Source: Eledone cirrhosa
Lineage: Eukaryota
Assembly (NCBI GenBank): GCA_964016885.1
Contig: OZ024748.1
Coordinates: 29,512,001 to 29,576,000, forward strand
Direction: 5' to 3'
DNA: 64,000 nt
The notes under the pieces are model-generated. The model worked only from the letters and a program-made list of their open reading frames with translations, did no database searches and was not told the DNA's origin. The position numbers and the translations under genes were made by a program. How positions within the stretch are numbered: position 1 is the stretch's first letter; the number at the start of each line of letters is the position of its first letter. This document shows, in pieces, positions 32,270 to 35,717 of this stretch.

Positions 32270-32317
32270 ACGGTGTTAAGGCAACCACGTCACCTTTTTG
32301 TTCAACACTGATACAGG

Positions 32318-32362
32318 AACGATGTACTAGTTTCAAGCTTGTTAGCTATCATCAGCACCGTT
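32318..32362 (-). ncRNA. Minimal type I hammerhead ribozyme family C
   Basis: Reverse complement of the 32802-32846 motif. Confidence 0.85.
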
Positions 32363-32801
32363 TTACCCATCTGCCAGATAGTTGAACGTTCGAAAGTATA
32401 TACTTTCCTTATGAAAATTAACGGCTGAGCAGCCTAATTTGCATATTGAGTGAGTTAAATCGGTCAGGCATACCGAAAACGATAAATTGAAACAAAATGA
32501 AAACGAAATTTCATTTCTCACTCTTAGTATGGCACTTACTTAAATGTAAGTATGCATGTATACGTACATACATATATGTATACAGACGTACAGTAGCATG
32601 CACATATATATATACATATACATATATACATACATATGCATACAGGTACACATACATATATGCACGTATCAGTTTAGCGGCGCTAACGTCGCTTTGCCTG
32701 ACCGATTTAACTCACTCAATATGCAAATTAGGCTGCTCAGCCGTTAATTTTCATAAGGAAAGTATATACTTTCGAACGTTCAACTATCTGGCAGATGGGT
32801 A

Positions 32802-32846
32802 AACGGTGCTGATGATAGCTAACAAGCTTGAAACTAGTACATCGTT
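32802..32846 (+). ncRNA. Minimal type I hammerhead ribozyme family C
   Basis: AACGGTG CTGATGA T AGCT AACA AGCT T GAAA CTAG TA CATCGTT: canonical core, 7-bp stem I, GUA site. Confidence 0.88.
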
Positions 32847-32947
32847 CCTGTGTCAGTGTTGAACAAAAAGGTGACGTGGTTGCCTTAACAACGTATGGCA
32901 TAAATTCAGGCTGTTCAACGAACAAAGCGACGTTAGCGCTGCTAAAA

Positions 32948-34847
32948 TATATATATATATATATATATATATATACAGATATATATATATATATATATAT
33001 ATATACAGATATATATATATATATATATATATATATATATATACAGATATATATATATATATATATATATATATATATATATATATATATATACAGATAT
33101 ATATATATATATATATATATATATATATATATATACAGATATATATATATATATATATATATATATATATATACAGATATATATATATATATATATATAT
33201 ATATATATATATATATATATATATATATACAGATATATATATATATATATATATATATATATATATATATATATATATATACAGATATATATATATATAT
33301 ATATATATATATATACAGATATATATATATACAGATATATATATATATATATATATACAGATATATATATATATATATATACAGATATATATACAGATAT
33401 ATATATATATATATATATATATCTGTATATATATATATATATATATATATATATATATATATATATATATATACAGATATATATATATATATATATATAT
33501 ATATATATACAGATATATATATATATATATATATATATATATATATACAGATATATATATATATATATATATATATATACAGATATATATATATATATAT
33601 ATATATATATATATACAGATATATATATATATATATATATATATATATATACAGATATATATATATATATATATATATATATACAGATATATATATATAT
33701 ATATATATATATATATATATATATATATATATATATATATACAGATATATATATATATATATATATATATACAGATATATATATATATATATATATATAC
33801 ACAGATATATATATATATATATATATATATAGATATATATATATATATACACAGATATATATATATATATATATACAGATATATATATATATATATATAC
33901 AGATATATATATATACAGATATATATATATATACAGATATATATATATATATATATACAGATATATATATATATATATATATATATATATATGTATATAT
34001 ATATATATATATATATATACAGATATATATATATATATATATATATATATACAGATATATATATATATATATATATATACAGATATATATATATATATAT
34101 ATATATACAGATATATATATATATATATATATATATATATATATATACAGATATATATATATATATATATATATATACAGATATATAGATATATACAGAT
34201 ATATATATATATACATATATCTATATATATATATATGTATATATATATATATGTATATATATATATATATATATATATCTGTATATATATATATATATAT
34301 ATATATATATATCTGTATATATATATATATATATATCTGTATATATATATATATATATATATATATATATATATATATATATATATATATATATCTGTAT
34401 ATATATATATATATATATATCTGTATATATATATATATCTGTATATATATATATATATATATATCTGTATATATATATATACATATATATATATATATAT
34501 CTGTATATATATATATACATATATATATATATATCTGTATATATATATATATATATATATATATATACATATATATATACATATATATATATATATATAT
34601 ATATATCTGTATATATATATATATATATATATATCTGTATATATATATATATATATATATACATATATATATATATATCTATATATCTGTATATATATAT
34701 ATATATATATATATCTGTATATATATATATATATATATATATATATACATATATATATAGACACATATATATATACAGATATATATATACAGATATATAT
34801 ATACATATATATACACATATATATATATACAGATATATACACATATA
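32948..34847. repeat. (TA)nCAGA microsatellite switching to (TA)nTCTG polarity near 34230
   Basis: Direct reading. Confidence 0.95.
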
Positions 34848-35717
34848 TAAATGTAAGTATGTATGTATACGTACATACATATATGTATACAGACGTACAG
34901 TAGCATGCATATATATATATATACATACAGGTACACATACATATATGCACGTATTTGTTTAGCGGACGCTTATTATAACGCCGCTTTGTTCGTTTGTAAA
35001 CAAACTGAACAGCCTGAATTTATGCCGTACGGTGTTTAGGCAACCACGTCACCTTTTTGTTCAACACTGACACAGGAACGATTTACTAGTTTCAAGCTTG
35101 TTAGCTATCATCAGCACCGTATACCCTTCTGCCAGATAGTTGAACGTTCGAAAGTATATACTTTCCTTATGAAAATTAACGGCTGAGCAGCCTAATTTGC
35201 ATATCGAGTGAGTTAAGTCGGTCAGGCATACCGAAAACGATAAGTTGAAATAAAATGAAAACGAAATTTCATTTCTCACTCTTAGTACGGCACTTACTTA
35301 AATGTAAGTATGTATGTATACGTACATACATATATGTATACAGACGTACAATAGCATGCATATATATATATATATATATATATATATATACATACAGGTA
35401 CACATACATATATGCACGTATTTGTTCAGTGTTGAACAAAAAGGTGACGTGGTTGCCTTAACACCGTACGGCATAAATTCAGGCTGTTCAGTTTGTTTAC
35501 AAACGAACAAAGCGGCGTTATAATAAGCGTCCGCTAAACAAATACGTGCATATATGTATGTGTACCTGTATGTATATATATATATATATATATATATATA
35601 TGCATGCTACTGTACGTCTGTATACATATATGTATGTACGTATACATACATACTTACATTTAAGTAAGTGCCGTACTAAGAGTGAGAAATGAAATTTCGT
35701 TTTCATTTTATTTCAAC
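34848..35717. mobile_element. Family C element: 1.3-mer of a ~451-bp unit plus an inverted segment; hammerhead at 35077-35120 (-)
   Basis: Direct repeat 34848-34960 / 35299-35427; inverted part 35428-35717. Confidence 0.85.

Follow-up and report, generated by a model that had tools for sequence, protein, structure and literature searches.

The window analysed here is a 64,000-nt stretch of the Eledone cirrhosa genome (assembly GCA_964016885.1, contig OZ024748.1, positions 29,512,001 to 29,576,000 of the forward strand). Near its middle lie four segments of a unit of about 451 nt that lacks an open reading frame (ORF) and carries a hammerhead ribozyme motif. These segments had been described in an earlier reading of the letters alone (the sequence-only reading), and their coordinates were right to within a few bases. 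We defined the unit, u, as the reverse complement of window positions 34848 to 35298 (451 nt). The longest ATG-initiated ORF encodes 31 amino acids (aa) when read from the hammerhead strand and 58 aa when read from the opposite one. The four permuted segments do represent one unit; however, they form not one array but two insertions, each with its arms head to head, which lie separately in a single (TA)n tract and belong to subfamilies that differ by about 4% (Table 1). As had been reported, the segment at 34848 to 35426 is longer than one unit (1.25 units), and that at 35428 to 35717 reads straight through the unit junction, although this junction is a priming site, called B below, and not the ribozyme site. 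Insertion 2 (34848-35718) is a standard case of one A arm facing one B arm, as defined below. Insertion 1 (32270-32944) is atypical; its ends may have been lost, or priming may have taken place elsewhere.

Table 1. Features of the hammerhead-unit insertions (window positions; u, position in the unit; PLE, Penelope-like element)
Feature	Position	Strand	Remarks
Insertion 1, left arm	32270..32695	-	~u311 round to u271, ~0.9 unit; 3' end at neither A nor B
Type I hammerhead core, insertion 1 left arm	32325..32355 (core 32331-32355)	-	predicted cut 32325/32324
Insertion 1, right arm	32695..32944	+	u71 to ~u335; 3' end at neither A nor B
Type I hammerhead core, insertion 1 right arm	32809..32839 (core 32809-32833)	+	predicted cut 32839/32840
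(TA)n-type target tract between insertions 1 and 2	32945..34847	.	like tract on both outer flanks
Insertion 2, B arm	34848..35426	-	spans 1.25 units; its fixed 3' end (B, 34848) abuts (TA)n
Hammerhead core, insertion 2 B arm	35084..35114 (core 35090-35114)	-	rare C-to-A change just after cut site
Insertion 2, A arm	35426..35718	+	u229 to u56; without hammerhead; fixed 3' end A at 35718
PLE-type "tail"	35663..35718	+	~59 nt from start site B to start site A; AU-rich hairpin; concept from the accessible text of PMC11167929 and PMC8557442

Three hammerhead cores were found in the window, against a chance expectation of 0.35, and three or more cores occurred in 0 of 100 shuffled sequences. The segment at 35428 to 35717 has none. 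The cut that the sequence-only reading predicted between 32839 and 32840 was correctly placed. The core at 32809 to 32839 has a 4-bp stem II, a 1-bp stem III within the palindrome ACUAGU and a GUA triplet. A type I hammerhead in each unit, as is typical of retrozymes, is indicated by the core, stems I to III and the GUA site. The copy at 35084 to 35114 has an A in place of C right after the cut site, found in 1 of 178 units. Scanning the window against Rfam gave no match at the gathering threshold; therefore, the ribozyme call rests on the core motif, the fold and covariation. The core was near-invariant in 172 to 178 units, from loci most of which had been chosen on the core, and its commonest change fell at the free position 7. 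In an older, 83%-identical subfamily, a G-U pair of stem I is swapped to U-G.

To sample the family, an exact 31-nt hammerhead core was searched genome-wide, which gave 10,718 matches in the 3.0-Gb genome and 0 for the control. The first 100 matches listed fell into 53 clusters, every one of which was examined with about 3.5 kb of flanking sequence. By extrapolation, there would be about 5,700 unit loci in total (about 5,000 to 6,000). Units measure 450 to 550 nt, including an internal (TA)n tract, and form tandem ORF-less arrays, another retrozyme feature, of up to 19 units.

Next, the ends of the arms were mapped. The circular permutation described before affects one side only: the 5' ends are scattered over the unit, and the 3' ends are fixed. 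Hammerhead-strand arms stop at site A (u~54-59) or at site B (u~445-451), about 60 nt apart, and continue as (TA)n. In the 53 loci, 46 of 97 arm ends were at A and 37 at B, while nine were in the internal TA tract, four elsewhere and one off the locus. Genome-wide pattern counts, which are lower bounds, gave at least 1,924 A-end and at least 2,513 B-end junctions with (TA)n, as well as at least 6,173 read-throughs of A. The two kinds of end are paired: with alignment-based end calling, 53 of the 81 head-to-head pairs from 118 loci joined an A arm to a B arm (AB), 2 were AA (L027 is one AA insertion), none was BB, and 26 were unclassed. When the set selected for A ends was left aside, the result was AB in 47 of 70, AA in 2, BB in 0 and unclassed in 21. 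The 83%-identical subfamily keeps this pairing rule (AB 15 of 19, AA 1).

The opposite arms of an insertion also carry the same haplotype. At 17 subfamily sites, 37 of 38 loci had matching arms, and 98.8% of the comparisons agreed, versus 60.8% between loci; eight loci with separate insertions had been left out (the window, L008, L013, L027, L065, L089, L098 and L106). Joints between the arms (n = 32) showed an overlap of 1 to 4 nt in 14 cases and of at least 6 nt in 9, several of them fold-backs; two were flush and seven had inserts. A arms ended within about 10 nt of site B in 11 of 104 cases, compared with 1.6 expected (a distance set after seeing the data), as if blocked by a complementary DNA (cDNA) begun there. 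The sequence-only reading gave the unit family the same 5' inversion signature as the neighbouring Penelope elements; the inverted part is more aptly seen as another arm, for which synthesis starts at a fixed site of its own. At one locus (L095:2490-3866), a tandem repeat with a 55-bp period fills about 590 nt between the A and B arms and may have been captured by a template switch.

Similar structures are known from Penelope-like elements (PLEs); here and below, published systems are cited from the accessible parts of the texts. In PLEs, just one of the ends bears a tail, and there is a truncated arm in inverted orientation (PMC8557442); for an anole PLE in vitro the tail equals the distance between two start sites of the reverse transcriptase (RT), with both strands being extended (PMC11167929). 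The features of a PLE passenger, namely, variable 5' truncation, partial tandems, an inverted arm and a (TA)n target, are all found in the unit insertions.

We then examined the predicted RNA fold, since retrozymes are structured RNAs. The z score was -7.7 for the whole unit and -5.6 without the TA tract, versus -2.9 for the antisense strand, and the hairpins named by the sequence-only reading were recovered in the computed folds. The fold is conserved across the 83% subfamily and a sister family with a 467-nt period and 61% identity to the unit (L267:1-1290; L183:200-900; L018:2840-3286), which has the same helices with changed sequence. In this two-armed sister family, stems I and II are replaced by other pairing sequence, and the ACUAGU palindrome and both start sites are kept. 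A first covariation test was modest: 6 of 73 pairs had changed on both sides, a value reached in 11 of 500 shuffles, with few independent events and with the structure drawn from the same alignment. The helices of the sister family, chosen by eye, had 22 two-sided changes, 6 of them from one register-shifted helix, which leaves 16 of 56. According to the model, the ACUAGU palindrome can self-pair as in dimer-cutting hammerheads, and the hammerhead is predicted to cut as a dimer alone. A still more distant relative with its own hammerhead was found by profile search at L077:5598-5857 (E 5e-7). An RNA polymerase III promoter was considered but found no support: the hammerhead strand has an A-box-like match but no B box, and there are four T runs per unit.

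Joints between units and PLE bodies were searched in all loci sampled up to that point. Direct joints without a TA spacer involved a single autonomous family, PLE-P, at L074, L077 and L284, the first two of which belong to the 53 hammerhead-sampled loci. The fusion at L077 combines the A end of the unit with the B end of PLE-P, that at L074 the B end of the unit with the A end of PLE-P, and that at L284 the A ends of both. Each of these insertions has a unit at one outer end and PLE-P at the other, with read-through joints at u429, u414 and ~u303. All remaining unit/PLE adjacencies have a TA spacer or are tail-to-tail. PLE-P is young, with copies 99% identical and an apparently intact ORF of 798 aa or more; its Hydra-clade features are the DKT motif, a CxCX5C linker, CxxC and CxH in the endonuclease (EN), a canonical hammerhead and a (TA)n target. 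RWT stands in place of RWK, the motifs being read against the accessible text of PMC8557442. PLE-P also has an A/B tail itself, about 90 nt long, and its two-arm loci with both ends visible, from a set selected for the B end, were AB in 8 of 9. A Pfam search gave it no name; 66 protein homologues were found, one of them from Argonauta hians with 37% identity. The fusions point to PLE-P as the likely RT donor for the unit.

We also compared the unit with two PLE families of the window itself. Family A is a young autonomous PLE at 9171-12641 (- strand) with DKT and CxCX5C motifs and a CCGAAGA hammerhead variant in its pseudo-long terminal repeat (pLTR); it has many copies genome-wide with an 832-aa open frame, and pieces of its pLTR also lie at 6624-7143 and 15943-16305. 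Family Q is represented by a two-armed 3' end with a tail of about 80 nt at 62971-63345. The unit showed no homology to the termini of PLE-P, family A or family Q, with local scores within the shuffled range, so the 3' similarity of a PLE passenger to its autonomous partner is absent for these three families. Family A was rejected as the partner: besides the missing homology, no direct fusion occurred in 30 family A loci, viewed 1.5 kb either side of the RT match. The family fused to the unit is a different one from the neighbouring PLE of the window. Nor are copies consistently tied to an RT/GIY-YIG ORF, which that reading had named as evidence against itself; neither the 53 hammerhead-sampled loci nor the joint search of all loci gave a recurring unit-ORF junction. 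The fixed junction expected of a pLTR is lacking, as the three fusions lie at three unit positions. Given no homology and no recurring junction, the unit is not simply the pLTR of PLE-P, family A or family Q.

Metazoan non-LTR retrozymes share many properties with the unit: they are ORF-less structured tandems of a few hundred nucleotides with one type I hammerhead, present in thousands of copies and co-occurring with PLEs, and axolotl HHR_Amex1 likewise has a 1-bp helix III with a palindromic loop (PMC7229834; 10.64898/2026.07.22.740005). Mobilisation of animal retrozymes by PLEs was proposed (PMC7229834) and later argued from pLTR homology (10.64898/2026.07.22.740005). In the accessible text of these papers the role of PLEs is drawn from co-occurrence and pLTR homology, with insertion ends unmapped, whereas here ends, pairing and fusions point to a partner. 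Unlike Xenopus retrozymes (10.64898/2026.07.22.740005), the unit has no homology to the pLTR of its likely partner. A search for public data sets containing the unit listed none of RNA. EN+ PLEs of the Hydra clade and the PAc system resemble the unit: their tandems are partial, the inverted arm is truncated at its 5' side, only one end has a tail, the RT starts at two sites, targets are (TA)n and a hammerhead lies near the 3' end. The unit differs from them by having no ORF, a tail of about 59 nt rather than 30 to 40, and arms of up to 15 units (PMC8557442; PMC11167929). PAc in vitro had no strand preference between the start sites (PMC11167929), while in the unit A is almost exclusively found with B. 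Chlamys MRC1 is, like the unit, a non-autonomous PLE passenger with multicopy head-to-tail insertions, but such passengers have a 3' end resembling the autonomous partner, and Chlamys elements mostly have no canonical hammerhead, the opposite of the unit on both points (PMC8557442). As judged from sequence, the unit family combines the features of non-LTR retrozymes with the insertion features of PLE passengers. In L1 twin priming, cDNA is primed by both target strands, which yields an inverted arm, and U6/L1 chimeras arise by template switching. The unit differs in that its second start site has a constant position and in that the two arms are copies of one stretch, not of two neighbouring ones. 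Literature searches listed no publication on the unit family or on retrozyme-PLE fusions; subscription journals were mostly outside this search, and supplements may list relatives.

Taken together, we consider it probable that the unit represents an ORF-less, non-autonomous hammerhead retrozyme family written into (TA)n by a PLE RT/GIY-YIG protein, most likely that of PLE-P. This is the identity put forward in the sequence-only reading, a retrozyme-like family mobilised by Penelope-like machinery, and the PLE tail, the A/B pairing and the PLE-P fusions lend it support. The unit, the fixed 3' ends, the A and B arms, the multi-unit arms and the fusions are seen in the DNA; the steps of the mechanism are inferred from them. 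The unit would be transcribed and then fold into its conserved structure. A PLE protein, probably a dimer, would bind near the tail and nick both (TA)n strands; synthesis on a single RNA would be primed by both DNA ends, by one at A and by the other at B, and the two cDNAs would thus copy the same stretch, the A cDNA often stalling where the B cDNA started. Both cDNAs would continue past the unit boundary and the ribozyme site, sometimes on an uncut concatemer and in other cases probably on a ligated circle. The cDNA ends would join, often by a few bases of microhomology, and occasional template switches would fuse the unit to PLE-P RNA. A bolder version, which we find quite possible yet would not call probable, is that a PLE dimer grips one structured tail, uses two dedicated sites of a single RNA to prime both strands of a (TA)n break and runs many times round ligated ribozyme circles, monomers as well as multimers, with a superfamily of ORF-less hammerhead replicons parasitising PLE-P purely by structural mimicry of its tail and the RT hopping between parasite and host RNA within an insertion.

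Several points weigh against this explanation. Without homology between the unit and PLE-P, recognition would have to be structural. There are three fusions only; a template switch can join RNAs that merely share a compartment, so they do not prove that PLE-P makes most copies, and other PLE families may be involved. Of the pairs, 26 of 81 had one end unassigned or elsewhere, insertion 1 of the window among them, and a first, regex-based end caller had given 32 AB, 5 AA, 5 BB and 5 other before it was replaced by alignment; its AA and BB calls were mostly mutated internal units. At L068 and L091, a unit arm is paired with an arm of another small family, D, and therefore a single RNA is not in every case the source of both arms. 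(Family D, at L254-L283, L091:4021-4090 and L068:4458-4500, has a tail of about 80 nt and inserts for the most part as short two-arm fold-backs; twice, it supplies the second arm of a unit insertion.) Most loci were sampled by the presence of the hammerhead, which favours the read-through counted below. For the ribozyme, the active monomer fold is predicted at -1.8 kcal/mol versus -12.7 kcal/mol for the inactive one, a gap of about 11 kcal/mol, and 8 of 9 retrozyme dimers tested in a Xenopus preprint were uncleaved (10.64898/2026.07.22.740005, accessible text).

The form of the template was assessed from read-through and rare variants. The hammerhead was read through 205 times in 189 arms, at least twice in 45 of them. 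Only 2 of 108 resolved 5' ends lay near the cut site (3.5 expected), without any pile-up, and in 30 loci sampled by their A ends, 19 arms reach the cut site and all 19 pass it. Because arms run through the cleavage site, a cut linear monomer was not the template, which leaves an uncut multimer or a circle. The sequence-only reading noted that the sequence maps as a circle and proposed copying by rolling reverse transcription. The mapping is real, but tandem copies produce the same one, and circular mapping with homogeneous arrays does not alone prove such a circle. If the template were always a hammerhead-cut, ligated monomer circle, with arrays formed solely by rolling reverse transcription, a rare allele should recur in every piece, as it does at 12 of 41 multi-unit loci (at 8 across both arms). 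At L291, a private base is present in 7 of 7 full units and one 58-nt TA tract in 9 of 9 repeats, and at L289 one 50-nt TA tract is present in 9 of 10 repeats, in each case in both arms. The absence of excess 5' ends at the cut site, the retention of the core down to 61% unit identity and the circular RNAs of mussel, coral and axolotl retrozymes (PMC7229834) agree with this view as well. It fails as the sole route, however, at L010, L292 and L287, where a rare allele is found in both arms but in some laps only, in register from the 3' end at L010 and L292; at L287, both arms have in common a pattern that spans two units and combines a base change with tract length. These variants need non-identical units; therefore, a monomer circle is not the sole template. 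Insertion of the anole PLE in vitro did not need hammerhead activity either (PMC11167929), and we regard an exclusive monomer circle as unlikely. The same variants fit mobilisation by a PLE from linear uncut multimer RNA only, with arrays growing by local tandem duplication and the hammerhead making no circles, an account that shares the PLE step with our preferred explanation and differs solely in template form. It also fits the blocks of adjacent units with a common variant within one arm in seven loci (L018, L073, L082, L110, L138, L288 and L290), the arrays of up to 19 units as possible sources, and the unprocessed RNA that was the dominant substrate of the anole PLE (PMC11167929). Yet it requires a long, internally identical source array for each rare haplotype (L023, L064, L291) and leaves the selection keeping the hammerhead and the dimer palindrome unexplained, and we see it as possible rather than probable. 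That circles served as template for a substantial share of copies appears to us an even call.

Two further explanations were considered. The copies could be nothing more than pLTRs, truncated at the 5' end, of an autonomous PLE of which no ORF-bearing copy was sampled, in line with Xenopus retrozymes, which are homologous to PLE pLTRs and of which 24 of 57 families match transposable elements, nearly all PLEs (10.64898/2026.07.22.740005, accessible text); the Eledone genome has 44,929 first-look PLE candidates, and three families were compared. Arms of up to 15 consecutive ORF-less units, however, cannot be derived from an ORF-bearing tandem, the junction and homology results above point the same way, and a profile search of 1.22 Mb of locus DNA returned ORF-less relatives of the unit only. 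A rare unsampled ORF-bearing parent is possible, but truncated pLTRs as the nature of the copies seem very improbable. The arrays and inverted arms sit in unstable (TA)n, and fold-back junctions lie at hairpins in L067, L087 and L209, as might be expected if a satellite or fold-back element had spread as DNA, with no RNA intermediate, or if TA tracts had been misassembled. Against this stand the strand polarity of the fixed 3' ends, the scatter of the 5' ends, the joints with PLE-P and the compensatory changes seen in the RNA fold; the unit is also present in public contigs of three studies. This reading is strongly disfavoured and has hardly any probability left.

As far as the accessible text of PMC7229834 and 10.64898/2026.07.22.740005 goes, the enzyme and template behind the spread of animal retrozymes had been proposed but not demonstrated. 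[quoted passage not shown] The PLE tail and the inverted arm would be accounted for as two outputs of one two-ended priming event. If the tentative version with a PLE dimer, ligated circles and tail mimicry were true, the insertions would be direct genomic evidence of rolling-circle retrotransposition in an animal, with a named enzyme.

Some other observations were made in these loci. L287 (G000:C1:69577200-69587100) is a single insertion made up of 19 near-identical units (15 + 4), in which a pattern that spans three units, set by a base change and by tract length, occurs in duplicate. Rare variants, examined for scars of RNA editing, had no strand bias (A>G 41 versus T>C 54), although single cases such as an A>G change at u309 in six laps of L288 may be such scars. 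More than 10 other families of hammerhead-like motifs with different stems were present in the sampled loci, the genome being unusually rich in them. In the window, a young element of the long interspersed nuclear element (LINE) type lies at 21044-22923 and 60479-62997. Its two copies are 98% alike, its RT ORF includes a PHD finger, and its 3' repeats are arranged in tandem; the copy at 21044-22923 was considered as a PLE and rejected since its RT is LINE-type. The pol ORF of an LTR retrotransposon, with RT, RNase H and integrase domains, is found at 232-2532. Another repeat family, at 17502-19350, 20207-21044 and 28430-29590, forms inverted pairs in TA tracts and has no homology to the unit.
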